DNA of 42,948 nt from Jimgerdemannia flammicorona (Eukaryota), in the NCBI GenBank assembly GCA_003990765.1, contig RBNJ01000083.1:1-42948 (forward strand), written 5' to 3'. Positions 682-42,948 of this stretch are shown here, piece after piece. Each line of letters starts with the position of its first letter. Position 1 is the stretch's first letter. Below the pieces are notes generated by a model that was given only the letters and a program-made list of their open reading frames with translations, searched no databases and was not told the DNA's origin. The position numbers and the translations under genes are program-made.

Positions 682-2302
682 GGGTCGAAGCTGTGTGTCG
701 GTGCTCCAACCTATCTAAGCTAAATTTCAATGTATAAAGAGTGTCGTTGGATGTCATGTCAGAATATCTTCTGCTTCCTTCCGTCCCGTCGTGCATGACG
801 TAAATACAATGGGACACTGCCACACTTAACTCTCGCCATTTTTCAAAATGTAAGCATCATATGTTATATTTACTCTTCTCACTCACACCTTTCCTGAGGT
901 TGCCGTAAACGACAGTACGGAAAGGCAGGGTGGGTTCCAGCCCTTTGTGCACCGCTAATGAGTATGGCGCGCCAAATGTCGCCTCCTTGCCCTCGCCTAT
1001 GCAGGAAACACCATTTGGGGGAACGACCCTACATCACCCTCACTGAGAGGGAACGGCGACTTGGGATCAATAACTTAACGAGCAGAATGTTTTCTTTTTC
1101 GGGTAGAAACACTTTACCAAGGATCTCGAAACAACCTGTTCCCAACCCAATGCATTCCGACAAAGGCAGCACTGCTCAAGGATTTCTGAGTAACGATGGC
1201 AAATGGTCCCTATTAGGCCTATTGATGGCCAATGCACACGTCCTTGTGGTCATTCATACGGTCTTTGCTCTGCTTGTTTGGTGTCTCACACTTTGTAATA
1301 ACCCGGATTTCGCAACCAACAACGACATGTCATGCTATAGATCTACATACGCTTTGTCACTAAATAGCTTTTGAATTGATGGATAAACACCTCCCCGTTA
1401 TACCTTAATAAACTAAAATTTACTCAGGGACCAGCCGTTACAAAGGCTTGGGTTGTGAAAACCTCACTACATTGAACCACGTTTTAGAAGGACAGGAAAA
1501 TCGTACTCTTACACGCCCCTTTTGTCTTGAGCATAAATAATACTCTGGGGAGTATTCGTCGAAGATGTCCAAGTTGATTTCATAATAACAAACAATGCGC
1601 TTCCTCTGGGCTTTGCTGGTTGGAGTTGTCCTTGGGGCCTTAGGAGCTAGTGGTCAATTGCAGGACGTCTCTCCAACGCACATGTCAATGAAACGCATGA
1701 CGAGCAAGCATCCACCACACAATAATGACAGAGAAAGCGATGCCCATGAGGGAAGCCGCAATCCGTTTTTGGGCCAGTATTGGGAAGGGTTTCCCATTGG
1801 CATAAGTCGTCTGTATGTTTGTTTGGGTAGATCACAGAACTGCGTCTCAAAATGGCAATTCGCTCGAATTTGCTGCTACGCCACATACATTTGCAAACGG
1901 GGAACCCCTGCTTGACCTACGCTGTGGGGCACGGAGGATGTGCCCTGGCAAGGGTAGTTGATTGAAACACGACAGCTGGAAGCGAATATAAAGGGACGCA
2001 AACCAAAAAAAAGGGGGAAAGTAGCTGCAGTGAGTGCAGATAAAAAAAAATCCATTGGTCGCGCCAAAAGAGCAAGGGGCAAGATGGTCACGGATTGGTG
2101 ACGACAGTGTTTCATGTCATGAATTCGGACATCGCCAAGCCCAAGGCACGCGGTTGAATTTTGGATTCTTTGAAAGACTCTCTCTCCACTGACTGGATTC
2201 GAGTCTGCTTGTCACAACCACAACGCAATGAAGTCTCTCCAAAGAGACCCAACCTTTTCCTGGCAATCGTTGCCGACCCTAAAATGTACCCCTCCCCGCA
2301 GC

Positions 2303-11645: not shown

Positions 11646-12997
11646 ATGGGTAAAGACTACTATGCTATCCTCGATCTCAAAAAGAACGCCGACGATGATG
11701 CCATCAAAAAGGCTTACAGGAAGCAAGGCAAGCATTCTGGTATCACATATTTGTGCACACGCACCAACGCGTGATAACCAACACAAGTCTTACCTTCACG
11801 GCTCCCAAACCAAATAGCTCTAAAGTGGCATCCCGACCGCAACAAAGACAACGTTGAGACCGCTAAACGAAAATTCCAGGATGTTGGTGAGGCATTTGAA
11901 GTTCTGAGTGACCCAAACAAGCGCACCATTTATGATCAGTATGGTGAAGAAGGCCTCAAGGGAGTTCCACCTCAAGGTGCTGAGCCTGGCGGTGCCGCTG
12001 GCGCCTTCCCAGGCGGTTTCGCGAATTTCCCTGGCGGTGCCACTTTTACCTTCAGCTCGGGCGGACCAGGTGGATCTCGATTCCAACCCTTCCAGCCGAG
12101 AGACGCAGACGATATCTTTAAGTAATGAGCCCACATTTCACTTATATTATTGCGTCATTTGTACGTAAGTGGTCATTTCATTAACTGACGCTTGACCGTT
12201 TGTACAGAACATTCTTCGCTTCATTTGGCGGAGGGCAAGGGCAAGGGCAAGGGCAAGGGCAAGGGCAAGGGCAAGGGCAAGGGCAAGGGCATGGCATGAG
12301 TATGGGTATGGGTATGGGTATGGATGATGGTGAATTTGGTATACCAGGCGGGTTTGGCGGTATGTTCGGCGGTGGCATTCCGCGTGGTGGTGCGCCGGGC
12401 GGTGCTCGAGGTGGGCCTTCGTTCCGTAATGCACAGCAACAAGACGCTACCTCCAAACCGCCTGCGGTGAAGCGACCGCTTCCCTGTACTCTTGAAGAGC
12501 TGTATGCGGGTACCACCAAACGGCTCAAGGTCACGCGTCGCCTCATGGATGGAGCATCAGGTAAACCGATGGCGACGGACAAAGTGCTTACAATCAATGT
12601 CAAACCCGGATGGAAGGCTGGCACCAAGATTCGCTTCCCGAACGAAGGTGACGAGTTGCCGGATGGGACGACCCAGGATATCGAATTCGTACTTGAGGAG
12701 AAACCTCATCCAGTCTTCAAACGAGATGGCGACAATTTGCATATGACCATCGACCTTTCTCTTTTGGAGGCTCTCACGGGGTTCCAAAAATCGATCAAGA
12801 CGCTTGACGAGCGGAGCCTTAGCGTATCGAACGCGAACACCATTGTTCAACCAGGTGACGAGTCCCGTGTTCAGGGCGAAGGTATACCGAATTCAAAAAC
12901 TGGCAAGAAGGGGGACCTTGTCATCAAGTATAATGTCAAATTCCCATCTCAGCTAACGCCGGCTCAGAAGGAGGGTTTGAAAAAGGTGCTGGGCTGA
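11646..12997 (+). CDS. SIS1: Type II Hsp40/DnaJ co-chaperone (Sis1/DNAJB-like), 3 exons: 11646-11727, 11818-12121, 12208-12997
   Basis: [35 protein letters not shown]-domain, G/F and G/M linker, C-terminal [16 protein letters not shown]...[12 protein letters not shown]...[12 protein letters not shown], no zinc finger. Confidence 0.95.
12233..12286 (+). repeat. Coding microsatellite (GGGCAA)x9 encoding (GQ)9
   Basis: Perfect hexamer array in the G/F-G/M linker of the DnaJ gene. Confidence 0.95.
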
Positions 12998-13325
12998 TAA
13001 GACACTTTATAATCAGAAATGGGGGAGGGGGGGGTGACGGGGAAGAACTTCATTGAACGGTTCGTACCACGTATGGTGGTTTCGATTACTTTTTTGATTG
13101 AAATTTGGACCTATTAGTTTTCCGTACCGTTGGGGCAATCAGTATCGGGAAATCAGCTCACTACCGTTCAATGATTTGTGGCTAATGATGGCTAACGGTC
13201 CCTCTTGGTTATTTGATAATTGATGGATTGATGGTCAATGTACATGTCTTGTCTTCATTGCTCCATTTCATCTTGTCTTGCCTTGTTCCTTTTCGTCCTG
13301 AGATACAATAAAAATCCTCTCCCAA

Positions 13326-14138
13326 ATGACTCTTCTTTCTGTCCATCAAGCATCTAAACATCTCGGAGTCTCCTCCAGGACATTTCGTTGCTGGCACGCT
13401 CAAAGCCATTGAGGATGTCCTTCCCACGTCTTCCACCCAAACCTCCATCCAATTACACTTCACCCGACCTCTGGATCAGCCTGTGGCTATACCTATGTGC
13501 ATGTTTCAAGCCCAAAACAGCAGCAGGACCTCAAATGACAAAAATGGCACCTCCAGCAGCTCTACCCATCTTATTGCATTATTATCAATGTCACCAGTGG
13601 CATCAATTTTAAAAGACCTGGTCTTAAAATCTTATTGAAACTCTCATGTCAAGGGTTGCTAACAGAGGTAATACTTATCTTCTACTACTTACACACCTGT
13701 ATGAATATAATATTCATATCTCTTTCAACTTGATAGATCATGGTTGTCCACCATGACTGACTTTGTCACTTTACCTATAATCTCCTCAAACACATCTTCA
13801 TCCTCAATAGCACCAAGGTCATTATGGTTTATGCAGAGGATGACACATCGAACTCTGTAGCTCAAGAACTATCTGAGGACATTCTTGCAATCAATACTAT
13901 CTTCATCTACTAGATACAAGATTGAAGAGTAGTAAAAAACTGATAGTACTACAGGGACTAGCAGTAACAGCAAGGACAAGAGGAAGGTCAGGATAAGTCT
14001 GGTGTTTGTGAGGAAGAAGGACAACATATACAGTTTAATGAGAGTGATGAAGAGTAAGATATAGAGAGGTAGTAGATAGATTGTATTAAGCAAACTGAGT
14101 TGTGCAATAGTTATGAAAACTCAAGTTTTCATCATTGA
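13326..14138 (+). pseudogene. tnpA: IS607-family serine recombinase (TnpA) relic 1 with an intron at 13668-13736; 3' end approximate
   Basis: One frame reads MTLLSVHQASKHLGVSSRTFRCW (MerR-type HTH)...GYTYVHVSSPKQQQDLK*Q (cf. YARVSS.KQ..DL.RQ)...SGINFKRPGLKILL...GLLTE|IMVVHHD*LCHF (cf. VVAHRDRLCRF)...QELSEDILAINTIFI; stops arise mostly from transitions. Confidence 0.85.
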
Positions 14139-14546
14139 TTAGATTCAATCTACTGTTTTTATTAGCTCTGATATAACATGTTATAGACAAGTCCAGAAAA
14201 ATAGACAAATGAATTATATATACTCAGAACTGTATATTGTTCTTCTTCTTGACTGAGTTAAATAAGGATGCTTTTCTGTATAATTTTATATATATGTCTT
14301 ATATGTTTCTATATACAATTTTGCATTATGTCATACTATTTTCAATATAAATAATTAAAATTATAAGCTCTATACAAATTAACTATATCTCCTGAGGCCA
14401 GAATCCTAACACCCCAAGGACAATCCTTTTTCTCAACTCTTCTCTCCTATGAATCTATCTACTGATAAGGTCTTCATGATCATAATATCTTCTTACAATC
14501 TAGCTCCACCTCTACCTCTATCTCTATCTCTACCTCCACCTCCACC

Positions 14547-14957
14547 TAGTACTCTCAAATGAGTCAAATCAATTCGAATCGAATCGAATTGAGGGTTAAA
14601 CAAATCGAATCGAATTGGGGATTTTTCAATTTGAATCAATTTGAATCAAATCAAAAGTTGAATCAAATTGAGGGTCTAATTCAAATCCTAATTTTCAAAA
14701 TGCAATAACTCAGCATAAACTCATCCAAATCTAACATACTTTAGCTTGTTAGAATCACATTAATACGGTGAATCTAATAAGCTAAAATATGTTAAATTTG
14801 GATGAGTTTTCGTCGAGTTATTACATTTTGAAAATTAAGGTTTAAATCAAACTTACCTTTGATTCAATTTGAATCAAATCAAATTGGACCCTTGATTCGA
14901 TCAAATCGAATCAAGTTTGGGCCAAATTCAATTTGATTTGATTCATTGAGAGCACTA
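14547..14957. mobile_element. hAT-type MITE, copy 1
   Basis: TIRs TAGTACTCTCAA / TTGAGAGCACTA, 8-bp TSD CCTCCACC (14539-14546, 14958-14965), internal palindrome centred near 14763, near-identical to 39078-39460. Confidence 0.93.
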
Positions 14958-15291
14958 CCTCCACCTTCACCTCAATCTTTACTTCAATCTTAACCTCTAC
15001 CTTAACTTTAACCTCAACCTCCACCTCTATCTCTACCTCTACCTTAATCTCCACCTCTACTCCCATCTTAATCTCCAACTATAGTCCAGTCAAAGAGATA
15101 ATCAGACTTGCTATTTTTCATACACTTACTTGCCTTTTGGTATTTTTATATATTTTTACAAGTCTTGTTTAATTTATTCATATGTTTTACCTGCTATTTT
15201 TTTTTGTCTCCTGTTTAAATAATATTTTCATTCTTATATCTTTAAAAATCAACTATATTATATCTATATCAGTAACTTTAAAATAATTGAT

Positions 15292-15387
15292 TATACTAAG
15301 TTCAAGGTTTTTAAACTAAAGATAAAATGTAAAGAGCTCAGCCTAATAATCAATAGTATAAAGAAGGTATTAATTGACAGGCTATAG
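15292..15387 (+). pseudogene. SAP DNA-binding domain relic, part of a Pro-rich cargo gene spanning roughly 14400-15400
   Basis: YTKFKVFKLKIKCKELSLIINSIKKVLIDRL fits the SAP pattern L.V.ELK..CK..GL...G.K..LI.RL once transitions are reversed; (CCACCT)-like Pro-coding repeats lie upstream. Confidence 0.55.
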
Positions 15388-15639
15388 GACTTCTATAACA
15401 AAATGCTACAAACTTTATATTAAATAGTCAGTACTTCCAAAGTTTCAATATATATAGAAGGTTACTATTATTTTTTAATTTTTTAATATATATGAAATAT
15501 CAAATATGATATTACTAATCCAATTAACAGCTTATAAAAAAATAATTATTTCATTTATATACTTATATATCACTTTTTATTCTCAGTTATAAGTAAGTTT
15601 TCAGCCCAAACCAGTGGAAGAGACTCATCCTTAGAGCCT

Positions 15640-16074
15640 TACTAATACTCTTATATCAAGGAATAGTTATATAAGTGATGCTTTATAATGTTATTCTACT
15701 GTTGACATTCTTATTTAGCTATGAATATCATATTGACATCACTTTTGATTTGATGGATTGTGGTTGCCCACTAAGACCAACTTTATTACTTCATCAATAA
15801 TACTAAGATTATTATAGTATATTGAAAGGATGATATATCATCCTTTATATTTATTATCAATAAACTTACTCAGAGTATCTTCAAACAAGGATAATGACAA
15901 TGTTCAGCAGAAAACTGAAGGTGATGAAGAGAAGCAGAAGTATAAGATAGAGGTAAGGCTTACTTATGCTTGAAAGAAGTAGAAAGTAAAGAGAATAATG
16001 AAGAGTCTGAAGATACAGATCTATCTGAATATAAAGCAGAAGAAGCTGATGAAGAGATAGATAAGATATGCTAG
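15640..16074 (+). pseudogene. tnpA: IS607-family TnpA relic 2 (3' half) with an intron at 15675-15756 and an acidic tail overlapping the TnpB start
   Basis: YQGIVI*|IVVAH*DQLYYF...SAEN*R...EENNEESEDTDLSEYKAEEADEEIDKIC*-like tail; intron shares position and 3' sequence with relic 1. Confidence 0.7.
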
Positions 16075-17263
16075 ACTTATGTATAACATAGTCATTCAGG
16101 CATTTTAAGGTAAAGATCACTATACTACCTTTGCATATTTCTATACTCTGCTACATCAGTAGATCAATGATAGTATATGGGCTTTCATGACTGAAGTTTT
16201 ATATAATGTACTCAATAAGATGATGAAGAAAGTGATCCAAGCATGTGACCTCATTCAGCAGAGGAATCGAGAAGCATGAGAATCAGAATAGTGATATTAA
16301 TATTGACTCTTATTTCACTATTATAAGGAACTATATCAAATGATCACAATATGTTAGCAAAACTATTAAGAGTATCTTAAGTTCTATCCTCACATTCTTT
16401 ATATATATGTCATCACTACCAATGACCCTTCACATTCTCACTATAAGAATCTGACCACATATCCACCTCTTTATTATAAGCACTATAAGAAGAAATACAA
16501 TTAACTAAATCTAGAAAAATGGGTCAGCAATGATTTGAAGCTGATGTAGGATCAACAGTAGAGGTAATAGACCTTTATCTGGATCTATAAGAAGAATAGA
16601 GTAGTCTTCTTTAAGAACCAAGCAAAGGATCCTGATATCTATTCTCTAGATCTAAGTGTCTATACATTCCTGACATAGTACTCTTCTATCTATAGTTGTG
16701 GTAAGATAGATACAAAGAATGCACAAAGACTTGTTCACCTCTGTCTCATCCTCAATAATCTCATCTCCCAGACTGCTAAAGCCCCTACTCAAAAGCATAA
16801 TTCCATATACTGTACCCAGACTCATATATAGCAGTGAATCTGCAATCTTGTCAATGAGTACTACTGCAAGACTGTGCTCTAGCTCATCCATACCTTTGAT
16901 GTCATTATCATTCCTTCTTTCAATGATAGCCAGATAGCCATAAGGCACTATCAAAAGATCACCAGTAGGACAGTCCATTTGATGATGACATAGTCATATA
17001 GAAGGTTCAGAGAGAGGCTTTTGTCAAAGGCTGAAGAGTATAGCAAATAAGTATGTATGATCTCAGAGATATATACAAGCAAGACCTGCAATTGGTATGG
17101 GTGGATCAATCATAAGCTGGGTGGGAAGAAGGTATTCCATTGTCATGGGTGTGGCTTAAATATCAATAGAGACATCAATGGTGCATGTAGGATCTTTCTT
17201 CAGGCTTTATTGAATGATTGCATAGAAGGTAAGATATTCACATTTGACAAATTGATAATGTAA
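15998..17263 (+). pseudogene. tnpB: TnpB/Fanzor2 RNA-guided nuclease pseudogene (421 codons, single frame, multiple nonsense codons)
   Basis: MKSLKIQIYLNIKQKKLMKR*IRYARLMYN (OrfB HTH), WAFMTEVLYN, DIYSLDLSVYTFLT (RuvC-I, Asp at 16649), ICNLVNEYYCKTVL*LIHTFDVIIIP, TSRTVHLMMT*SYRRFRERLLSKA, SEIYTSKTCNWYG...FHCHGCGLNINRDINGA (zinc ribbon, RuvC-III). Confidence 0.92.
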
Positions 17264-17365
17264 GAAGGTTTTGGATGGCTTTTTGCAAGGTTGAATCTAA
17301 TGATGCCTTTATTTTTCTACATTACATAATTAGGGATCTAACGGAAAACATAGCTGCGACGACAA
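17150..17365 (+). ncRNA. Predicted omegaRNA region (scaffold to the right end at 17344, guide from 17345); 5' limit is a guess
   Basis: Position only: TnpB/Fanzor omegaRNAs overlap the ORF 3' end and element right end and take the guide from flanking DNA. No structure was confirmed. Confidence 0.35.
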
Positions 17366-17754
17366 TGGCAACAGCGCCAGGGTGGGGGGGGGGAAATGCG
17401 CGCCTGTGAGTTTGCCAGGCTTTGTTGGGTGGGACTGTCCTTAAGGGCACCAGTTGGGCGTGAACAGGCAGTGTTGGCTAGTAATGGCCAATGTTGTCTA
17501 TCAGTGTCCGACTCAATCCATCCGTATAATTGTGTCTAAAGTAGTTGACCACCATTGTTTTAGTTCCCTATAAATTGCTGTCTCGTTACCTTTATGCCAG
17601 TGCCCTTAAGGGGCGCGGTTCCCTAAAAGGCAAGCTTAGACATGGCAACCAGACCAACGGGCGCTGTTTCTTTGTTACCAGCGACCCTCTTTATCATTAC
17701 CAGACCCTTCTCCTAGTTCAACCTCCTAGCTCAACCCCCGACGCTCCTACTCTT

Positions 17755-31746: not shown

Positions 31747-32162
31747 CAGGGTGGTGTAAATAATTGAGCAAAATTTTGGACTGCGGCTGCTGACAACTTA
31801 GAGGTCTTGAATTTTAAATTTTGAAATCAAATGAAATATAAAAAAGAATTTTATAGAAGTTGTTTATTTATAAATATGGAATAATTTTATTTTTTTATTT
31901 TTAATTTGAGCTCAGTAGAGTTATAAAAAGAGAAATACTTATAAAGTATTATAATTATAATTATTAATAATTATAATCTTAATAAAATATATATTAAAAT
32001 AATAATAATAATAATAAGTTTATATTAGTATTTTAATAAAACTAATTTATCATTAATTTATTATGATTGAAATTTTAAAATTAATCTTATTTTAAGTTAA
32101 TAATTAGTTTATAGTCTAATAATATATCTTTTAACTTATTAAATATTTTTTACAAAATAATA

Positions 32163-32404
32163 ATAACCCTTAAGCTGTAATACAGGTAAATTTGTCTGCA
32201 AAAAAAAATAATATATAATTTTTATTTAAAAAAAATTTTTTACTAATAATATAAAGTTAAAAAAAAATCTAAAATATTTTTTAAAAATATTTTTCAAAAA
32301 AAAATTTTTTTAATACTTTTACTAATAAATATAAGATAAAAAAAAAAAAAAAAAAAAAAAAAAGAGGGCCCGTAAAAATCCTTACTACATAAACCTAAAA
32401 AAAT

Positions 32405-32443
<39 letters not shown>

Positions 32444-33373
32444 CTAAAAAAAAAAAACTAAAAAAAAAAAAAAAAAAAAAAAAAGATGAGCCTGTGAAAT
32501 CCTTACTACATAGACCCTATGAAATCTAAAATACAAAAAGAATAACTAAGATAGAAGGAGTTTCTCTAGAAGAAATAACTTAAGAAATAAATAAAAAAAT
32601 CAGTGAAATTCCAGAGAACCAAGACTCAATAAGGATAAAAAGAAGTAGCTCTATAAAAAAAGATTATGCTTTATTTACAAGAAGGTAGGACACATCTCTT
32701 TCAAATGTCTTAAGAAGAGAAACAAATTAGATAAATCTAGTAACTAGAACATCACTATTATTGGAGAAGGCCCAGGAAAGAAAAACTCTGAGAATATCAT
32801 TAGAGTATAAAAGATATAATACAAGACTACCATCCCCACTAAGGCCCATCTTATAGATATAGAATATAATCTCTACAGTAGCCAGGATCTTACAATACTA
32901 CTAAGTAGTGCTCCTAATGAAAACTTTAAATTGAATTAAGATCTAATTCAATTTAATTTGAGTTTTAATTTGAATAAAATCAAGTTACAATTCAAATTGA
33001 ATTCAAAGTTTGAATTTTGAATTAAATTCAAAATTCAATTTAAAATTCAAATCTAAATATAGTAATTCAAAACTCCCATATAATATAACTCACAACAATA
33101 ATATATATACACTCTTCTTAGCAATTAAGCAATAGGGTTACATAACCCTTAGACTATATATAACACAGGCAAATTTGCCTGCAAAAAAAAATAATATATA
33201 ATTTTTATTTAAAAAAATTTTTTTACTAATAAATATATATATAATAAAAAAAAATATTAAAAATATTAAAAAATTAATTTTTTGAAAAAAAAATTTTATT
33301 AAAAATTTATAATAAATATATAGTCAAAAAAAAAATTAAAAATTTAAAAATTTTTGCAGGCAAATTTGCCTGC
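32163..33373. repeat. Duplicated AT-rich element ends (about 32163-32330 and 33141-33373)
   Basis: ATAACCCTTA..ACAGG(T/C)AAATTTG(T/C)CTGCAAAAAAAAATAATATATAATTTTTATTTAAAAAAA occurs twice; palindrome GCAGGCAAATTTGCCTGC at 33356-33373. Confidence 0.75.
32906..33070 (+). mobile_element. Unpaired hAT-type terminus
   Basis: TAGTGCTCCTAA followed by TTGAAT/ATTCAA-rich subterminal repeats like those of the MITEs; no partner TIR found in the window. Confidence 0.6.
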
Positions 33374-33549
33374 AAAAATGAACAGCCAATTGGATAAGAG
33401 AGTATTATTGAAAATTTGAAATATTTCAAATTTGGGTGCGAAATCTGAAATATTTTGAATTTGGTTGTGAAATTTGAAAATATTTCAAAAAAAAACTGTG
33501 TCCTTGAAGTAAAAAATTTCTCAACTTTATATTCTTGTAACCTAAAATA

Positions 33550-34645
33550 CCATTGGCTGGAATCGACAATAGGGCTGAGAGGATGGGGCTTAGATAGATG
33601 AGAGATCTAGTAGACAGTATAATGGGTCTAGTGGTGGCCCCATTACTCAAGAAGTTGATCTTGGAGTTCACAGTTACTTTATACTTCAGAGGCTTAGCAG
33701 TAATAGCAAGAATGGTACTAGGGCTAATTGCTAAGTAGGTGGCTAGAGCTATATTCATGAAGTTCTTAAAGGGATTGGAAGGAGTGGAGGTTGGCTTTAA
33801 GGAGGCTGGACTATTGGAGAAAGTGCTGAAGACTGAGCTGACTATTGGGGAGGTGTGTATTCTAATGATGTACTGCTTGAGATGAGACCCCAGAGTAGTA
33901 CAGTTACTAGTAAAAGAGGTGCCCATGGTGACTGCTGAGGAGATGAGAAGAAGAATCAAGAAAGTCATGGCTGAGTATAGGGAGGTGGTTGATATTGAAT
34001 TCTGGGTCTAGGAGGGGACCTTATTCCAGACTGAGGATATTGATGTTCAGATTTGGTTAGCAGAGAAGGAAGCTACTGGAAAGGCTAGAGACTGGTCTTT
34101 GGGGTGGGGGAGGGGGATTGCTGGGAGGACTTAAGATCTCGGCTTGTAGGTGGAGTGAGTGATAGTTGGCTCACTGTAGGGTGGGTATTAGCAGTGTGGG
34201 TGGGACTGGCTGGACATTGGCTTTTTGTATTTGAGGAGGGACAGCAGATAGGGCTACAGGAGAAGGTATTATGGTGAGAGAAGTTGTTGGGGGATCTGCT
34301 GACTAGATGGTGGATGGATTGGAGTTCTTAGGGGGAGTGATGCCACAGTTTGGTAGTAAGGATCTGTGAACAGAGTAGTGGGAGAGTAGAGATAGTGTTA
34401 GACAAAGTAGCCTTTTGTCAGATAAGGGTAGGGGAGGGGGGCCCCCCCTAGGGGGATTAGATAGGGGGTAGATTCAATGTATTTATATGGAATAGATAGG
34501 CATAATAAAGGAAGGAAGTCCAAGTGACTATAAAAAAAAAAAAAAAAAAAAAAATACCTCAAAAGTGGCAAGGTATGTTGAAGATAAGCTACAAGAATTG
34601 GAGCCTTTTTTGAGCTGCAAGAAATAGAGAGTAAGGGAATAAAAC
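33550..34645 (+). mobile_element. Decayed non-LTR retrotransposon-like fragment (ORF1-like), host of the hAT insertion
   Basis: Stop-ridden frame VVQLLVKEVPMVTAEEMRRRIKKVMAEYREVVDIEFW; downstream poly(A)-containing units continue after 42755. Confidence 0.4.
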
Positions 34646-35529
34646 AGAGAGAGTAGTACTTCAAACAAGTCAATTTGAATCAAATCCAGATTTAATTTGC
34701 CACATAATGGTTTGATCCAAATCTCAAATTCAAAGCCATCTGAATCAACTTGGATTAATCTGAATTACTCTATCTGAATTACCCCATCTGAACCACCCCA
34801 TCTGAATTACTTAATCTGAATTACTCAATCTGAATTACTCAATCTGAATCACTTAATCTAAATTACTCAATCTGAATCCTTTAATTTGAATCCTCCAATT
34901 TGAATCCTCCAATTCAAATCCTCTAATTCAAATCCTCTAATTCAAATTCTTCAATCTGAATCCTCATCCAAATCCTTCAACTGAATCCTCTAATCTAAAT
35001 TCTCTATATGACTCATATGCTAGATATATTTATATATACAATATATATATATGTAAATATATATATGTATATGCAAATATACAAATACATATGTCAACAG
35101 ATCAGTCTTTAACAGTTCATAGTACTGATAATGCTTCAAGTTAAATATCTCTGATAGTTCTACACCTTTTATGCAATTCTCACTCCAAAATCTGGCAACA
35201 TTATGCTAAGATAGGAGATGATATTGTTTATAATTATTGTAGGTAAAAAATTAAGATACACCTATTCATATAACTGACACTTTTTGTTTAACATATATAT
35301 GATACTATTTCATCTACTCCCATAAACTGCACCAGCCAAAAGTTTAAAATATTTGGTGGTATAACTTCAAATATACATATATCAATATATAAAAGACAAG
35401 TATTCTGATAAAATCAAAAAGAATACAGAGACAAATAAAATCAACATCCAAGCTATGGTGGGTACATTTATCCAATTGTCTAACCATTTCTATACCAATA
35501 ACCTCATTTAATCAAAAATATTTAGCCAT

Positions 35530-38364
35530 ACTCTTTGGCAGAATTTCAAAATCAGCTCATTTGCTAGATTGTATGCACAGACCAGCCATTTACAACCATT
35601 AAGAGTGATCAATTGCATAGTATCTTTGGTCTCCTCAAGCATGATTTATATTTGCTAAATACTGATACTATTCACAAAGATGTCCTGGAGGCCTATAGGA
35701 AAGAGCATAACAATCTCTACCAGATACTTCAGATAAAATAAGAGCAGTACCATGATCTTTGCAAGCTTAATTATATATATTTTTTTATAAAGAGCTTACA
35801 AATTTAACCTCATATTCAATAAGTAGAATTTTGTAGGCAAAATTTTATTTATGATCAACACATGGATATTCCCCAATATAATTTTATTTCTAAGTATTAC
35901 TGATCATTAGATTGACCTCAATTGGTAGCTTAAATCTCTCACCCTTGACTTTGTCAAACTTGCTAGCCCTCATTCTGGAGACAACATTACAGATGTTTTT
36001 ATTAGTTATATCCAGGAGCTTGGAATCACAACTAAGGTAAAAAAGAAAGGCTTGCTGTCAGATTGGTATTTTGAGAGAGATCTTAAAACAAAATAGATTT
36101 TATTGGTTATTTATTTTTACATAAATTTGCTAACCAAATATTTCAAGTACAGATTTTGGCCATTATGATAGACAATGCTACAAATAACTCAATGTTTTTC
36201 CAAGTTTTAGCAGCCAACCTCAAATAGGAAAATATGGCCTTCAGTACAGAAAGCTGCCATATATACATAATACCAGACCCACATACTGAACCTCACTATT
36301 TAGAACTATCTTATATATATAGACAAAACATCTGAGAGAGGAGGGGCCCTGAGTATAATTTCCAAGCTATACAAACTAGTTGTATTGGTCTGATTGTCTC
36401 TATAACAATAAGATAAATTTGTTATATAGTATAGGGTAATCAGTTTAGCTCTAAAAGAGCTTATATTGGACATCTGTATATATTGAAACTCAATATTTAC
36501 AATGATCCAGCATGTGCTGGAGTTTGCTATGGTATGTGTTCTTTTTTCTTTGGTCAGCTGAAGCAACTTATTTCAGATGATTGAAGATTTTTTTTTTTAA
36601 AAAAAAACAAAAAACAAAAAAAGTCAATAGATTCAATAGTAGCTGTCAACAAGGAAATATAGGACAAGGCTCTAGGTGAAAGTAAGTAGGATGTACTTAG
36701 GAATATTATCAGAGTTTTGGAAGTAAGTAGTGATTATTCTGGCTCTATACTTGTTTGTCTGCCTCTATATAATATAATACCTCACCACATATAACTGTCA
36801 GTGTTTTGATGATTGTATGAAGGATATAGTCAAACAAATAACCTCAACAATAAGCTCTGCAATAACAGTATACAACCTTCTAATTGATTGGCTAGAAGAT
36901 AAGCTCAAGGATAGGCTAGAGAGTTGTGGTAATTTATGGTTAAGCCTAGATCAAAGAGATATGGAGGTTGCTCTAAGCAAGCTCAGAAAATACTGCTCCA
37001 AAACAGATACTACCATATACTCAATCAGTACAGGTATGTCGACATATAGTCATTATCTCTTTTAAAATAGAGAAACTCTTGCAAAAACTCACTCTCTTTT
37101 CTCTGAATAGTGCTGGATCTATACTTAAAGCTACAATACTATAAAGATCAGAGCTGGGAGCAGTACTTCATTGAGAGAATTAAGTAGATCTCTTTCTCCA
37201 CTACCTTACTGGTTACAATAGTTTGGTAGACAACCTTTTGAGTCCACTTTTCATAATTATTACCCCCTCTATCTTGGGTTGGTTTGCTGTACTTGTTGTA
37301 GAGCAGTAAGAGGGAGGTAATGGTGATGAGTTGTCTCTTTATTGGTATCAGATCAGTGTTTTCTCCACTTTTTCACAGTTTCTGATGTCTTTGGATATAT
37401 CTGGAGTATATTTGTTTTGATACAGTACCTTCTTTCTTTTGTTGTCACTAACAAGATACTGTCTCAGTATGTCTTGGGCTATATAGGGAGTTGGCCAATC
37501 TTAGGCATCAAGTGCTCAGTATAGATTACCTGCAGGTCCTCAGTATCTGTAGTAGGGCCCTCTGGTTTTGGTAAGCTTTCTGGTGAGTATAGTTCTGGTA
37601 TAGGTGACTGCTTTTCAGGTGTTATTGAGATGGGAGGGGAGATAGCCATCATAGATAAGAGAAAGGGTGATAATGGTGAACCAGTAGAGTACCAGACTGG
37701 GGGCAGTTACATATTGGGGCTGGAGTGGGTGCTGCTTTAGTGGGGCCTTTTGATTGGTACAGTGTGGTTAGGTAGTAGATATCACTCTCAACTTCTTTTG
37801 GCAATTTAGCAGGTTGGGCTCTGGTTATTAGGAGGAGTCAGAGAGTCCAAGACTACCTATTTCAGGCATCTTAGCTACACTCAACTAGAACTAGGAGCTG
37901 ATTAGCAATGTGATTGAGGCCTACAGGCTTGAGTAGTGGGGTATTGAGGGTCTCCTCCCATCTCACATATAAGTCCTTTACTCATCTTAACTGAGAGAAC
38001 CAGGCTCTATCTACTGTGTTGTACTTTGATGAGGGTTTTTCTTTGCCTGTCATTCTCTTTGGAGTGGCAGGGGCTATTCTATTTAGCTTAGGCATAGTCT
38101 TATATATATGTTGGGTTCTTAGATATATACTTTCAGTCATTGGCATATGGCTGGGTTTCCCCTGGTGATAGAGAGAGCATAGTGTACAGAATGAGATGTG
38201 GGTCAACATAGACCCTGCTGCACCTGATATAGTCAAGCTGCTGGACAATAGCTAGCCTAGATTAATGGAGAGGCAGTGCTTAATGGGTGGTGGGAGAGGG
38301 TTTTGGTCTATCTAGTCTAGGTTTCTTTCCAATAAAAATCCATGGAACATTGAGTCTATTAATA

Positions 38365-38397
<33 letters not shown>

Positions 38398-38890
38398 TCA
38401 AGTAGGCTATAATTGAAGTATACTGGAAAAACTATGCACCACTATAAGGTTCCAGCCAAAGTCTGGATGAATATGCCAAGGGATCCCTCCTATCCCACAT
38501 TTACTTTAGTAGAAAGAGGAAGAGGGAGCTGTTAGTGAAAGAGCTGTCATCAATAGATGAACTTATCATTTATCTTGCCAGCAACTATATGATCCTGCTG
38601 GAGGACATGGAGGTGCTTAACTGGTTTGTCAGACAGGTGTTGGGCCAATTTAATTCACCAATCTAACCACCACTCTACCTACTAGAGTATACAGCTGTAT
38701 CAAATGGACTTCTTCAGCCTATGTAGTATAGCTCAGAACTACCTGGTGATTTCTGCCTCCAGTACTTCCATTGAGCAGGTGTTCTCAGATGGGGTGGACC
38801 TTGTTGCCCCAAAGAGGTGTATACTGAATACTGAGATAATCTGGGTATATATGTATATATCTGAAGTCTTGGTGAAGCTTGGGCTGCTAA
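35530..38890 (+). pseudogene. hAT transposase relic with introns, interrupted by a LINE fragment
   Basis: ILFMINTWIFPN..FLSITDH*ID.NW*LKSLTLDF..LASPHSGDNI; IMIDNATNN; LILDICIY*NSIFTMIQ (cf. TRWNST); IAQNYLVISASSTSIEQVFS (hATC dimerisation domain). Confidence 0.88.
37188..38390 (+). mobile_element. 5'-truncated non-LTR retroelement insertion with poly(A) tail
   Basis: Poly(A) 38364-38390; 15-bp TSD GAGAGAATTAAGTAG (37173-37187) / GAGAAAATCAAGTAG (38391-38405) differing by two transitions; transposase-like sequence resumes afterwards. Confidence 0.8.
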
Positions 38891-39029
38891 AATTCAGTGA
38901 GTCTTAGGAATTCATAGATAAGTTAGTTGGCTTTATGGAATATTTAATACCTTTCAAAAATAAAAGAAAAAAAAACCTGAGAACTCAGCCCAGAGTTTGT
39001 AGCCCAAGTGGGGTAGTGGTCAGTGGAGT

Positions 39030-40000
39030 TGGTAGTAGTAGAGAGAGCATACAAAATTTGCAGCCCTCTACCAGCAGTAGTGCTCTCAAATGAGTCAAAT
39101 CAATTCAAATCGAATTGAATTGAGGGTTAAATGAGTCGAATCGAATTGGGGATTTTTCAATTTGAATCAATTTGAATCAAATCAAAAGTCAAATCGAATT
39201 GAGGGTCTAATTCAAACCCTAATTTTCAAAATGCAATAACTCAGTGTAAACTCATCCAAATCTAACGTACTTTAGCTTGTTAGAATCACATTAATACGGT
39301 GAATCTAACAAGCTAAATTACATTAAATTTGGATGAGCTTTCATCGAGTTATTACATTTTGAAAATTAAGGTTTGAATTGAACTTCGAATCGAATTGGAC
39401 CTTTGATTTGATTCAAATAGAATCAAATTGGACTCTTGATTCGATTTGTTGGGAGCACTAACCAGCAGTAAGGGGCAGTTTCAAGCTGTCAGTATCTCAA
39501 GCTATCAGTACTTGGGTCAGTAGGCAGGTTAGTGGATATGGGGTCAGTAGAGGGAGTATACAAAATTTATAGTCCTCTGCCAGCAGCAAGAGGCAGCCCC
39601 AAGTCATAAGTGTCTGGGATGGAGGGGTTGGCAGAGGAGGAGGGTAGATGGAGAGAGTATGTAAAATTTGTAGCCCTCTGTCAGCAGTGAGAGGCAGCCC
39701 CAAGCTGTCAGTGCCCAGGTCAGTAGGTAGGATCAGTTGGCAGGATTAGTGGGCATAGGGTTAGTAGAGAGAGCATGCAAAATTTGTGGCCCTTTGCTGA
39801 TAGCAAGGGGCAGCCCTAAGCCACAAGTGTCGAGATGAGCAGGGCAGACAGAGAGAGTGTGCAAAATTTGCAGTATCAGCAGTATAGAGCTCCCCCCAGC
39901 AGTCTGTGTCTGGGCCAGAGATCAGCAGAGTTGGTGAAGAGAGTATGCAAAATTTGTGGCCCTCTACCAGCAGCATAGAGATAGTCCCAAGCTACCAAGG
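39030..40000. repeat. Degenerate ~90-120 bp tandem units inside the hAT element
   Basis: Core GAGAG(C/T)AT(G/A)CAAAATTTG..GCCCTCT.CCAGCAG...GGCAGCCCCAAG recurs about six times; MITE copy 2 sits inside the first unit. Confidence 0.85.
39078..39460. mobile_element. hAT-type MITE, copy 2
   Basis: TIRs TAGTGCTCTCAA / TTGGGAGCACTA, 8-bp TSD ACCAGCAG (39070-39077, 39461-39468). Confidence 0.93.
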
Positions 40001-40374
40001 AGTCTGAGTCTGGGTCAGAGGGTACTTCTAGTGGTTAGAGGGTGCTTCTGGCAATCAAAGAGTACTTCTGGCAGTCAGAGGATATTTCTAACAATTAGAG
40101 GGTACTTCTGGCAGTTGAAGTCTACTACAGATTTGGACCCCATTACCAGTTTGGGTCCCATGGACACCCTGGTCCTGTGCCATAGCACCACACTAGTAGC
40201 ACTACAAGAGCAGAGCCAAGGGATCAGTAGGGCCCAGCATAATGACTAAACTAGTACTACAGAAGAGGTACCTGGCTACCAGCCTAATCTGTATAAAATG
40301 ACTGCTGAACCCTTATGAAAGATTGTCTAACCCTTACAAAAGATTGCCTAATTCTCATGAAAGATTGCCTAACC

Positions 40375-41600
40375 CTCACAAAAACTGCTCCACCTGCTGA
40401 TCCCAGGTCTTGATGAGCCTGTTATCCATTGTAAGTATAACAACTATTATGTCTGAGCTCTCCTCAAAGGTGATGATACCATAGTAATTATATGGTTAAA
40501 ATAGGATAGCTATATTGACTATAAATGGGACCCTGAAACCATAGGTGAGATTGTACAGACTCCACTACTATTCTCCCAGATTGGGTCCTTCCTTTCCAGA
40601 ATGTAGAACATTATTGGAGTGATGTCATTGTCTATATGTGTGGACAGAGAAACATTGTACCTAATATATTCTGATGTGATATAAGTATATGATTGGATGA
40701 ACCCTTGGCCCAGAACCTCATACTGCCAGGTTGTACTTGTGGATGTCTGCCCTTAGTCCAGCCCCAGGAGCCCTGGCTTGGAAACCTACCAGATAGACAG
40801 TATCCAGTCAGTCCTTTTTGCATATGGGGGGGCAGAAACCCCCCAGGCTACAGAAACCCTCTAGGCTATAGCACCCAAAAAAAGTAGAGCTCCTCACCTC
40901 ATACAGCATGCTAAATTGTGCCAAGAATGTATATATAGCTATACGGAGATCACTACCAAGCTGGCCTGCTATACACTCTACCAATCTGCTCAAAAAACTC
41001 CAGATCATAGCTGCTATTGCTATATAGACTGTGTCATGCTCATATATAGTTTGCTCTTTGATAGTACTTCTAAAGTTCTGGTAGGGGTACAGAATCTTGT
41101 GTATCCCTGAAATTGTATCAAAAAGAGTATATTGGTGAAGAGTGTAATTATCTAGAGAGGAGTAAAAAAAAGAGAGATGAGTGCAGGAGATTTCAGAACT
41201 CTGAAACCCACCCTTTGCCAGTATTACAGTATACTCAATTCCTGTCCAAACTCCCCCTCTTTGCTTTTTTTGCCCCCTCTTTCCTGCCATTCAGTATTTG
41301 ATACAATTCTCACAAATCTCATTGATATAGTAGTAAAGCTCATTGCTATAGAGGTTTCTTACCACCATTACAACTACCTCTCTACATTTATTAATAATAA
41401 TATAGTTCTCTTCATCATTGGTTACTCCTACTGATCAATAGACCTCTTGGTCAAGAACAATTAGCTCTAATTTAAATGTAGACCCCCAAGTCTTGATAAC
41501 AATGCTAGTACTACTCATACTGAACATATTGCTCTTGAATTTCTCTATTTGATCAGATATCAGATATAGTTGAACTCAGATAACTTTGAACTCTTCTTTC
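40375..41600 (-). pseudogene. Possible TET/JBP-like 2OG-Fe(II) dioxygenase cargo relic; limits approximate
   Basis: After an AG acceptor at 40661: YNVSLSTHIDNDITP (HxD)...WENSSG/LYNLTYGFRVPF..NIAILF*PYNYYGI (restorable to P..HHGT); one frameshift needed. Confidence 0.4.
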
Positions 41601-42764
41601 CAATGGAACTGAGCTCTGATCTGAGGGGCCAAGATAAGTATGCAGATGGGTTGCATACAGACAGATTGTATATAGACAGATTATATACAGACAGATTGTA
41701 TGTGGGTAAGTTGCATGCAGATGAGTTGTATGCAGATGTGGGTGTTTTTTAGGAAGAGACCACATAAAAAATAAAGTTAAATAAAACATAGAGATGGATA
41801 TTATAGAAAAAGAGTATAAGTGAATGAGTGAGTGAGTTATATGCCAATGAGTTATATACTAATAAGTTGCATAAGTTATATGAGTTGTATAAGATTGCTC
41901 ACAAAGGCTTATTTCTGTTCCTTTTGAGACATCTATCATACAATGCATTGACTCAACAGCTCAGCCACCAAAGATATATCTCATAATATCTGTTAGCCTT
42001 TCTTTATCTTCACCAGATATTGCAAATAAAGTCAGCAGATCTTACCATAGAGCTGTGGACCCTAAAAAAAGCATGAGGTAAATTGGGTTGTACTGGGGAA
42101 ATTTAAATAAATACAAGTAAATAAGTGAGCAACCTATATTTACTATTGACTACTCCAAAAAGACTGCCATATACATAACTGTGAGGTCTGTGAATTCTGA
42201 GGTCCAAAGGGCTGCTGTGAGTTATTGCCAGAATTCTCTCTCATCCCCACCATTGCCACTACCATCACTATTACCACTGTCATTGCCACTACCATTACCC
42301 CTTTGGCTCTTGATGAGTAGCTTGTATACTGCCTATATGAGAAAGAATCCAACATTATCAGCAGAGAGTGCATTACTATCTCAAATACTCTCTCTTTTGA
42401 TGATCATTGTAGAGTAAAAAATGAGTAGACTGGATCAATATATGATTAAGGACTACTGTTTTGTTTGCTTGTAATATGGTAGAAAAGAAAAAAAAATAAA
42501 GAAAAAGAATAAAGAAAGAATAAAAGAAGAGAGAGAATAAAAAAAAAGGTAATGTCACCAAAGTATAGCAGGAAAAAAAAAACAAGAGCAAAAATGAATA
42601 AAAGAAAGAGTGATGTTACCAAAGATTTCAATCTGAATGGATCAATCTAGATCAGATCATGAGACTAATCTGAGTTGATTTGAATCTATTACATGATGAA
42701 TCTGAATCAAATCTCATCTAGATCAACTCCATCTATTTGGAGCACTAAGAGAGAGTAAAGACTC

Positions 42765-42811
<47 letters not shown>

Positions 42812-42948
42812 CAGAGAATAGTTATAATAATATCTTGAGTAAGGAGTATGGACAGCTTTTTTGAAATGAGATATGTAGAAAATGAGCTGCAAGAAATTAG
42901 AGAGTGAGAGAATAAAGTAGTGAGAGCAAAGATCCTATAAAAAAAAAA

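Follow-up and report, generated by a model that had tools for sequence, protein, structure and literature searches.

A probable dead composite of two related IS607/Fanzor2 family members in the genome of the fungus Jimgerdemannia flammicorona

The contig RBNJ01000083.1 of Jimgerdemannia flammicorona (assembly GCA_003990765.1) was analysed over its whole stretch of 42,948 nucleotides (nt), here called the window. An AT-rich island in the window was found to contain the remnants of mobile elements of the IS607/Fanzor2 kind (IS607EU), in which the serine recombinase TnpA is paired with the RNA-guided nuclease Fanzor2. The GC content of the island is 33%, against 49-50% on both sides. Two decayed TnpA copies, one Fanzor2 pseudogene, two candidate left junctions and one right end were found in it, and in all likelihood the locus is made up of two related members of the family, both of them dead. 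A preliminary description, made from the sequence alone, had placed a single element at 13199..17344; the remnants read instead as those of two members, separated by a miniature inverted-repeat transposable element (MITE) and by unassigned DNA, with the right end at 17524 and the left end at 13127 or 13164. The comparison was made chiefly with the metagenome relatives L001-L012, which were drawn from the best 80 of 502 confirmed stretches and stand out with 61-100% identity to the query fragment.

The first TnpA copy (13326..14057, +) was found to be an IS607 serine recombinase pseudogene with a helix-turn-helix (HTH), a catalytic domain and a C-terminal helix. The TnpA motifs named in the preliminary description are real, and a single frame from 13326 contains the HTH, YVHVSS-KQ-DL (region 13494-13535), SGINFKRPGL and ELSEDILAI, that is, the N-terminal HTH followed by the serine-recombinase domain as in IS607; intact twins of this protein contain MerR and Resolvase domains. 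The frame contains 12 stops, the final one included, the first arginine of the RVSS motif is replaced by His and the RDR motif reads HD-stop. The match to NCBIfam NF033518 (IS607 transposase; E=1.7e-15, 57 of 110 bits) fell below the cut-off because of this decay, the match to Pfam Resolvase (E=0.003) was below the cut-off too, and archaeal IS607-family TnpA structures (ISC1926, ISC1904) were also matched. The environmental protein P0267 was found to be a near-twin of this copy (64% over 141 amino acids (aa), including the read-through of the intron). The intron is a putative GT-AG intron of 69 nt with two in-frame stops (13668..13736, +), which would be removed by splicing. A second reading frame at 13415..14060 (+) contains the decayed N-terminal part of the Fanzor2 of this copy, which is lost after ~14060; beyond that position the alignments of the copy 1 nuclease to relatives were at chance level, and similarity ends at ~14045.

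The second TnpA copy (15613..16074, +) consists of a heavily decayed 3′ half. It was detected as a 76% repeat of 13700-13781 and through alignment to intact relatives, with z scores of 13-38 for its DNA against L001 and L003 and tblastn E ~8e-12 against L001 and L002, and it gave no hidden Markov model (HMM) match in Pfam or NCBIfam. The 5′ half of this copy was not detected by alignment to relatives. An intron remnant of 82 nt (15675..15756, +) was found at the same site as in copy 1, with a GT start and a GG end, not AG. The acidic tail of copy 2 overlaps the start of the WED domain of Fanzor2. This tail had been ascribed to the TnpA with the motifs; that TnpA stops at 14057, ~1.95 kb upstream.

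The Fanzor2 pseudogene of copy 2 (15758..17263, +) was found to be of full length in a single frame, with TnpA upstream of it on the same strand with the overlap that is usual in IS607 (15613-16074 against 15758-17263). It contains the LWLPT motif at 15758, WED from ~16007, the RuvC-I D at 16649, a Pro at the canonical Glu site (16913), the shifted Glu at 17066, the zinc finger at 17087-17152 and the RuvC-III D at 17171. The TnpB reported as complete is thus full in length, but it contains 24 internal stops from 15758 (21 in the part 16001-17260), DLS in place of DPG at 16649-16657 and a Tyr in place of one zinc-finger Cys. Each change in the DPG motif is C-to-T or G-to-A, and the closest relatives keep the RuvC-I DPG, the motif being decayed in the window copy. 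With these lesions the window copy is unable to encode the Fanzor2 protein. The HMM matches that had been expected were obtained in part: PF07282 was above the cut-off in the frame 16001-17263 (E=1.5e-15), and HTH_OrfB_IS605 (PF12323, E=0.026) stayed below it like NF033518 and Resolvase. The pseudogene was aligned by hhalign to the clade profile over 381 columns with probability 100, and it has the HTH_OrfB region and the N-terminal extension of the compact, TnpB-like Fanzor2 architecture. A possible and uncertain intron was found at the Fanzor2 C terminus (17229..17333, +), with GTAAG, a branch-like CTAAT and TAG. An intron-like stretch of 64 nt occurs at the same place in L005, where a stop codon is reached only if it is removed; otherwise the frame passes through the scaffold into the flank, both in the window and in L005. 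Relatives that lack the spacer have the GTAAG as well.

The nuclease is assigned to Fanzor2, not to Fanzor1, on its sequence, on the modelled fold of a relative and on the catalytic layout. The catalytic Glu at 17066 (SEIYTSKTC) is located six residues ahead of the zinc finger, which is the shifted Glu by which Yoon 2023 (PMC10711439) defined the Fanzor catalytic layout. The best match of the window nuclease among solved structures was the mimivirus Fanzor2 9B0L, and a profile of 25 relatives matched 9B0L with E=4e-54, Fanzor1 entries making up 0 of 39 matches; no profile match to Fanzor1 (SpuFz1, 8GKH, 9CEY) was found at E up to 10. A fold model was built for the clade relative P0128, not for the window protein (77 sequences, predicted local distance difference test score 91), and in the structure comparison ApmFz2 (9B0L) was found at rank 1 (E=6e-19, template modelling (TM) score 0.74), with SpuFz1 at ranks 42 and 45 (TM 0.38). 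A tree was made by a quick method with no bootstrap and with Fanzor1 rows left out (234 sequences past the coverage filter, 136 after thinning at 75% identity, of which 74 were chosen together with 4 plasmid proteins). In this tree the window was grouped with L002, L003, L005 and L007 (Shimodaira-Hasegawa-like approximate likelihood ratio test 96), followed by a chytrid protein and L008-L010 (93). The clade of 35 rows that includes the window (100) contained 0 of the 19 named-prokaryote pro-Fanzor rows and 0 of the 19 viral rows, and IS605-type TnpBs fell outside it.

The Y1 HUH transposase and the canonical RuvC-II Glu of IS200/IS605 TnpBs are replaced here by a serine recombinase partner and the shifted Glu. 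The large REC/WED insertions of Fanzor1 and its DDE, Helitron and Crypton carriers do not fit a protein of ~420 aa from WED to the end with a serine recombinase beside it, and no Fanzor1 in IS607 elements is reported by Yoon 2023 (PMC10711439). The proposed pairing of an IS607 TnpA with Fanzor2, and not with Fanzor1, was therefore borne out by the profile and structure matches and by the position of TnpA upstream of the nuclease in relatives, and the recombinase was found beside the nuclease in other copies as well. RNA-guided DNA cleavage is the predicted function of the Fanzor2 of this clade. The rarity of fungal Fanzor2 that the preliminary description had implied is wrong, since Fz2 is 'found broadly in fungi' according to Saito 2023 (PMC10432273).

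The right end (17397..17524, +) was found to contain a predicted RNA scaffold (omegaRNA) of 5 helices, apart from the nuclease gene and ending with CCATCCG (17518-17524), which is closed by the right junction CCG (17522-17524, +). The fold of the scaffold had a z score of -2.84, and 7 of 8 relatives had z < -3 and one -1.4. In an alignment of 8 rows, 88% of the cells pair in the five-helix structure, compared with 29-49% when the structure was slid, and two-sided changes were found in 5 of 31 pairs; the support for the helices is modest because the structure was derived from the same, related sequences, and the structures predicted and counted are nested only. The distance from RuvC-III to the end is 134-145 nt in 7 of 9 relatives, whose scaffold overlaps the last ~20 nuclease codons, and it is 185 nt in L009, 271 nt in L005 and 356 nt in the window. 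In these last three the scaffold has been shifted out of the nuclease gene by duplication or insertion. A decayed first copy of the scaffold 5′ hairpin was found within the last Fanzor2 codons (17178..17217, +; covariance model (CM) 23 bits, E ~6e-5; nhmmer E=3e-4). An inverted pair of 11 bp, which may be chance, joins the short hairpin of the scaffold (17441-17451) to DNA upstream of the Ctr-like gene (17601-17611).

The window was found to be 83% identical to L005 at 17399-17500, and conservation stops sharply after CCATCCG, as it does past the CCG in all relatives. The CCATCCG end was present in 10 of the 12 closest loci, the other two being cut or interrupted, and when the window and another end found in L001 are counted in, the 12 ends are located on 11 different flanks. 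No match to the right-end pattern was found in viral contigs. The right flank at 17525..17544 (+), which is host DNA 230 nt upstream of the start codon of the Ctr-like gene, is the predicted guide, a role suggested by what is reported of TnpB and Fanzor biology (PMC10432273, PMC10711439).

Two candidate left junctions of two types were found 37 bp apart. The first contains a CCG core (13127..13129, +) in TACCG|TTGG; L001 and L002 begin with the same 9 letters on different upstream flanks. The second contains a CCG core (13164..13166, +) in CCG|TTCA; the left end of L009 is similar, and the similarity of the locus to the derivative near position 1.1 kb of the window (1172-1714) begins at this candidate. 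The left-end sequence (13167..13325, +) contains TGGCTA repeats at 13179 and 13189 with a spacing of 10 bp, and the pair recurs at 17475 and 17485, within the right end; these repeats are candidate TnpA binding sites. CCG|T was found at the left end of the 4 of 4 relatives with a readable left end (L001, L002, L009 and L011), and a CCG (or CG) core was found at both junctions in the window and in the same four relatives. No inverted repeat joining both ends was found among the 25 longest of 97 pairs. Within that list the ends contain no terminal inverted repeats; they have no long target duplication and a short core at both junctions, and such a core is what IS607 recombination leaves. In L001 a right end of the L010/L011 type (24-143) is located a few bases before the left end of the L001 element, so that two members stand in tandem, and in L009 a truncated TnpA start (414-480) before a full TnpA (661 onwards) suggests nesting or clustering.

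The relatives were collected by several searches. At E up to 0.001 a profile-free protein search found 4553 proteins, the listing covering 150 of them, and among the 187 matches of a seeded search with the nearest intact fragment as query a chytrid gene model came first; a word-seeded protein search with the decayed nuclease itself found 1 of 481 candidates. L001 and L002 were found to have 65-87% DNA identity to the window over TnpA, the nuclease and the right end. Both frames of L002 are open after the removal of three GT-AG introns (258 and 600 aa), and L001 contains one stop in TnpA. The codon at which the TnpA intron is located is shared by the window (69 nt), L001 and L002 (67 nt) and L009 (55 nt). 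In L001, L002 and L009 it breaks the frame by its length and must therefore be spliced, and its removal restores the frame. Four intron sites vary in presence among the relatives, and the window nuclease does not contain the two nuclease introns of L002. L003 and L004 are very similar with a nuclease intron cleanly present or absent, and the same was seen for the TnpA intron between L010/L011 and L034; such differences may reflect introns lost by way of RNA, or else a contig derived from a transcript. L005 (140-330) is internally deleted, so that the start of TnpA is followed directly by the middle of Fanzor2, and four CTTACGC repeats are located upstream. The public gene models P0005 and P0159, in which this Fanzor2 is fused either to a host HMG/FHA gene or to pieces of TnpA with frameshifts, are probably annotation artefacts that arise from the overlap and the introns.

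The overlap of the two genes had been described as the acidic tail of TnpA over the start of TnpB. In L002 the Fanzor2 frame was found to overlap TnpA by 644 nt, that is 83% of TnpA, in the +1 frame, and in L001, L002, L009, L011 and L034 the Fanzor2 frame starts just past the TnpA HTH with Met and a proline run and extends over the greater part of TnpA. A TnpA that precedes the nuclease on the same strand was found in 66 of 80 metagenome loci (the best 80 of the 502), 56 of 79 viral loci and 65 of 81 prokaryote loci, and the open frames overlap by at least 300 nt in 54 of 65 bacterial and 48 of 56 viral loci. Long dual coding as a fungal novelty was considered and rejected, as bacterial and viral relatives share the overlap; on the frames compared, it is to be read as inherited from bacteria and viruses. 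The -3 position contains a pyrimidine at the TnpA start in 5 of 6 elements and A at the Fanzor2 start in 5 of 6, and we hypothesize that leaky scanning chooses between the two starts.

L001 and L002 are nearly identical inside and differ in their flanks on both sides, which is direct evidence of the movement of an intron-bearing element; the route of the movement may be that of IS607. That the family was active in eukaryotic nuclei, as had been proposed, is supported by these features: its mobility in eukaryotes is indicated because introns are present in the relatives and precise ends occur on different flanks. Its activity in this genome is likewise supported by the two distinct copies and by the probable derivative at 1172-1714.

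The transversion distance between the two TnpA copies was found to be 0.13, compared with 0.07-0.11 from each of them to L002 and L003. Since the distance between them is not smaller than that to outside relatives, the copies are read as two family members. The serine recombinase would bind the short repeats at both ends and excise the element as a circle, as in bacterial IS607, followed by insertion at a CCG/CG core that would then stand at either junction, inverted repeats and longer duplications being absent. By the sequences of the relatives, one transcript codes for TnpA and for Fanzor2 in the +1 frame over ~83% of TnpA, and the spliceosomal intron in the shared stretch has to be removed for both frames; leaky scanning may choose between the two starts. 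The right end would act as the guide-RNA scaffold and the next ~20 host bases as the guide, and Fanzor2 would cut the emptied site beside the CCG motif, after which repair would restore the element. At this locus the insertion of one copy most likely took place at a CCG in the other's left end, so that the two left junctions and the two TnpAs are explained, and deletion, the MITE and C-to-T decay would then have killed both copies.

Several points weigh against this composite. No right end was found for copy 1, and the nesting is read from the two left junctions only. The TnpA introns of the two copies are more alike than either is to that of L002 or L009, which fits one subfamily or an old duplication equally well. 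The splicing, the scaffold expression and the CCG motif are predicted (a look-up for 13150-17400 gave no sequencing run, which bears neither way on expression), and the assignment is weakened by a quick tree without Fanzor1 rows in which the window row is compositionally biased. As to the two starts, 1 of the 6 TnpA starts contains A at -3, a short intervening open reading frame (ORF) is present in L001 and L002, and the elements are related. A candidate right end of copy 1 at 14075-14156, plausible on inspection, was not supported by pairwise shuffles (p 0.25-0.46), and a decay-tolerant profile and folding also failed to support it.

A single element with an old in-place duplication of TnpA, or two side-by-side copies fused by deletion, would need no nesting. 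The single right end agrees with such an origin, and homology between the two TnpA introns is clear (score 67.5, compared with 35-37 to other introns). In their coding parts, however, the copies do not resemble each other more than they resemble outside relatives, copy 1 does not contain 6 nt that are common to copy 2 and L001, copy 1 has its own environmental near-twin in P0267 and the two left junctions are of two types, so this origin is considered unlikely.

The decay of the nuclease was scored at the positions where L002 and L003 agree, with L005 as the control. C-to-T changes were found at 33 of 52 CpG (63%) and 79 of 151 CpA (52%) sites in the window nuclease, compared with 1 of 30 (3%) and 10 of 95 (11%) in L005, and 19 of 21 nuclease stops replace tryptophan, arginine or glutamine codons. 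The observed-to-expected (o/e) ratio of CpG is 0.03 in the element and 1.0 in host DNA, and the repeat block at 31.8-42.9 kb was found to be as CpG-poor as the element. Classical indices of repeat-induced point mutation were negative, despite the strong bias at CpA beside CpG in the direct comparison, and methylation-driven deamination would account for the decay.

The scaffold was found to be less decayed than the gene. Its identity to L005 is 85.7% and that of the neighbouring coding sequence is 62.6% (Fisher p=2e-7), C-to-T changes were found at 10 of 75 C/G sites in the scaffold and 126 of 352 in the gene (p=1e-4), and the scaffold keeps 9 CpGs where 14 are expected, compared with 1 against 38.5 in the nuclease gene. 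The sparing in all three counts, the five helices that all still pair and the position clear of the ORF would suit a working guide RNA, loaded in trans by the Fanzor2 of an intact copy and protecting the insertion or acting on the Ctr-like promoter. The left end, however, also keeps its CpGs (5 against 8.5 expected) and the scaffold is located beside a promoter, which points to an edge effect; the other substitution classes are ~three times rarer in the scaffold too, so that L005 may be a close relative at the right end; and the sole two-sided change against L005 is the one expected from two CpG deaminations. Such a working guide is considered improbable, and the position explains the escape from decay more simply than function, the two ends most likely having kept their CpGs because they abut active host genes. 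That the scaffold, once duplicated out of the Fanzor2 gene in this fungal lineage, is a free-standing, still-expressed guide that has survived its nuclease and is served in trans by the Fanzor2 of an intact copy is equally doubtful.

That the locus is bacterial, viral or endosymbiont DNA, or contamination, which was never mobile in a fungal nucleus is largely refuted and scarcely credible: bacteria and viruses share the architecture, long overlap included, and transposition in eukaryotes could not be shown by Gilbert and Cordaux 2013 (PMC3673617), but the locus is placed between intron-bearing host genes and has decayed like the other repeats of the host, the GT-AG intron is at a conserved site, the clade contains no named-prokaryote pro-Fanzor or viral rows, and the near-identical L001 and L002 have flanks that differ on both sides.

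The left neighbour of the island is a DnaJ/Sis1-type gene (end 12997) and the right neighbour is the Ctr copper-transporter-like gene (start 17755), and a two-domain Vps10, an adaptor (AP) mu subunit and a longin protein were found further away by Pfam label. The names that go beyond these labels (Sis1, Ykt6-like) are presumed here. One host protein had mainly fungal clusters among its matches, and with the neighbouring genes and the intron in TnpA this places the Fanzor2 in a eukaryotic location. The DnaJ gene contains a GGGCAA/ATGGGT repeat expansion (12236-12322) that codes for a Gly-Gln and a Gly-Met run.

Between the two copies, the AT-rich, CpG-free DNA at 14061..14495 was not assigned (best z 4.1 against 9 relatives), followed by a simple repeat of the CCTCTA/CCTTAA type (14496..15094) that is split by the palindromic MITE with TA on each flank (14549..14955). 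The MITE has a second copy at 39080-39458 (88.6% identity across 368 nt), and its CpG o/e is 1.14 amid otherwise CpG-free DNA; since it keeps its CpGs there, it is younger than its surroundings. The AT-rich DNA at 15095..15612 was not assigned either and contains no detectable 5′ half of TnpA copy 2. No Rfam match was found at the gathering score, and the 9 weak ones are AT-rich hairpins, of which 7 are located in the MITE.

The probable short non-autonomous derivative at 1172..1714 (+) was found to contain a left-end-like part (1176-1254) and a scaffold-like part (1594-1680), correctly ordered and oriented. The matches are each weak (blastn E=0.004 and 0.048, CM E=0.076, nhmmer E=0.039), the sequence is diverged and contains 20 CpGs where 28 are expected, and the scaffold-like part folds no better than shuffles. 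It is a probable third trace of the family in the window. A repeat block of 11 kb (31780-42948; CpG o/e 0.05) begins directly past a host gene, and at ~35.2-37.2 kb it has by eye the look of a decayed hAT-type transposase, with no Pfam match.

The window copy is debris of a kind already described, in which TnpA is paired with Fanzor2, and its value lies in the family. IS607EU, fungal Fanzor2 and Fanzor intron gain have been reported (PMC3627910, PMC10530073, PMC10690162, PMC13565253, PMC11832414, PMC10711439, PMC10432273, PMC3673617), and IS607-like sequences are known in ascomycetes and Ustilago from Gilbert and Cordaux 2013 (PMC3673617). In a literature search that had Repbase, most subscription papers and supplement rows outside its range, no intron in an IS607 serine recombinase was found described, and within the same limits (no Repbase, few subscription papers) neither were fungal elements with CCG ends nor a scaffold duplicated out of its gene. 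The gap in the evidence for transposition left by Gilbert and Cordaux (2013) is one on which L001 and L002 bear, with their precise CCG junctions on different flanks. L002 would be a natural substrate for serine-recombinase transposition with Fanzor2 retention in a nucleus, its ends, scaffold, guide and CCG being predicted. The family further shows how an overlapping gene pair of bacteria survives in a eukaryote, with a single intron shared by both frames and, in some members, a guide scaffold that is released from the constraint of coding. Were the preserved scaffold still expressed, guides would come from dead elements, and a free-standing guide, if real, would imply a dispersed guide set in which the window guide is aimed just upstream of the copper-transporter-like promoter.

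Among known systems, IS607EU/Fanzor2 and ApmFz2 (L79, 9B0L; Bao and Jurka 2013, PMC3627910; PMC13565253) are reported to share the order of a serine-recombinase TnpA followed by Fanzor2, and with them the shifted Glu, the N-terminal extension, the structured right end and the lack of inverted repeats or target duplication. In contrast to these, the window copy is dead and doubled, its clade contains spliceosomal introns in TnpA and Fanzor2, the scaffold of the clade is ~125 nt (the ApmFz2 RNA is given as 247 nt, PMC11832414) and the junctions are CCG, not G-rich. Glomeromycota Fz2 are listed in Supplementary Table 1 of Saito 2023 (PMC10432273), and the Diversispora epigaea protein RHZ82200.1, an FZ2 in that source, is by eye nearly the same protein as those of L011 and L010, which have the right end of the window. 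The protein HK104_009523 of the chytrid Borealophlyctis nickersoniae was found on the sister branch to the window group; like RHZ82200.1, it is known from table rows or gene models, in which no TnpA partner, ends, introns or RNA were found described.

The DPG and shifted-Glu RuvC of the window clade is also described for pro-Fanzor IS607 elements of bacteria (ISArma1 and ISXfa1 type; Yoon 2023, PMC10711439) and for IStrons (PMC10690162), and bacterial IS607 also shares the long TnpA/TnpB overlap and the recombination at a short core that ends at both junctions. The bacterial pro-Fanzors form a separate branch of the tree without spliceosomal introns, and the IS607 IStrons (PMC10690162) are reported to contain a GG core and a group I intron, unlike the window clade. 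The Fanzor1 SpuFz1 has in common with the window a fungal host, the RNA-guided type and a shifted catalytic Glu. NlovFz2 of Naegleria lovaniensis has a measured target-adjacent motif, 5′-CCG, according to PMC10432273, as at the window junctions; the two are likened by motif and not by sequence, and the match is a lead and not evidence of kinship.

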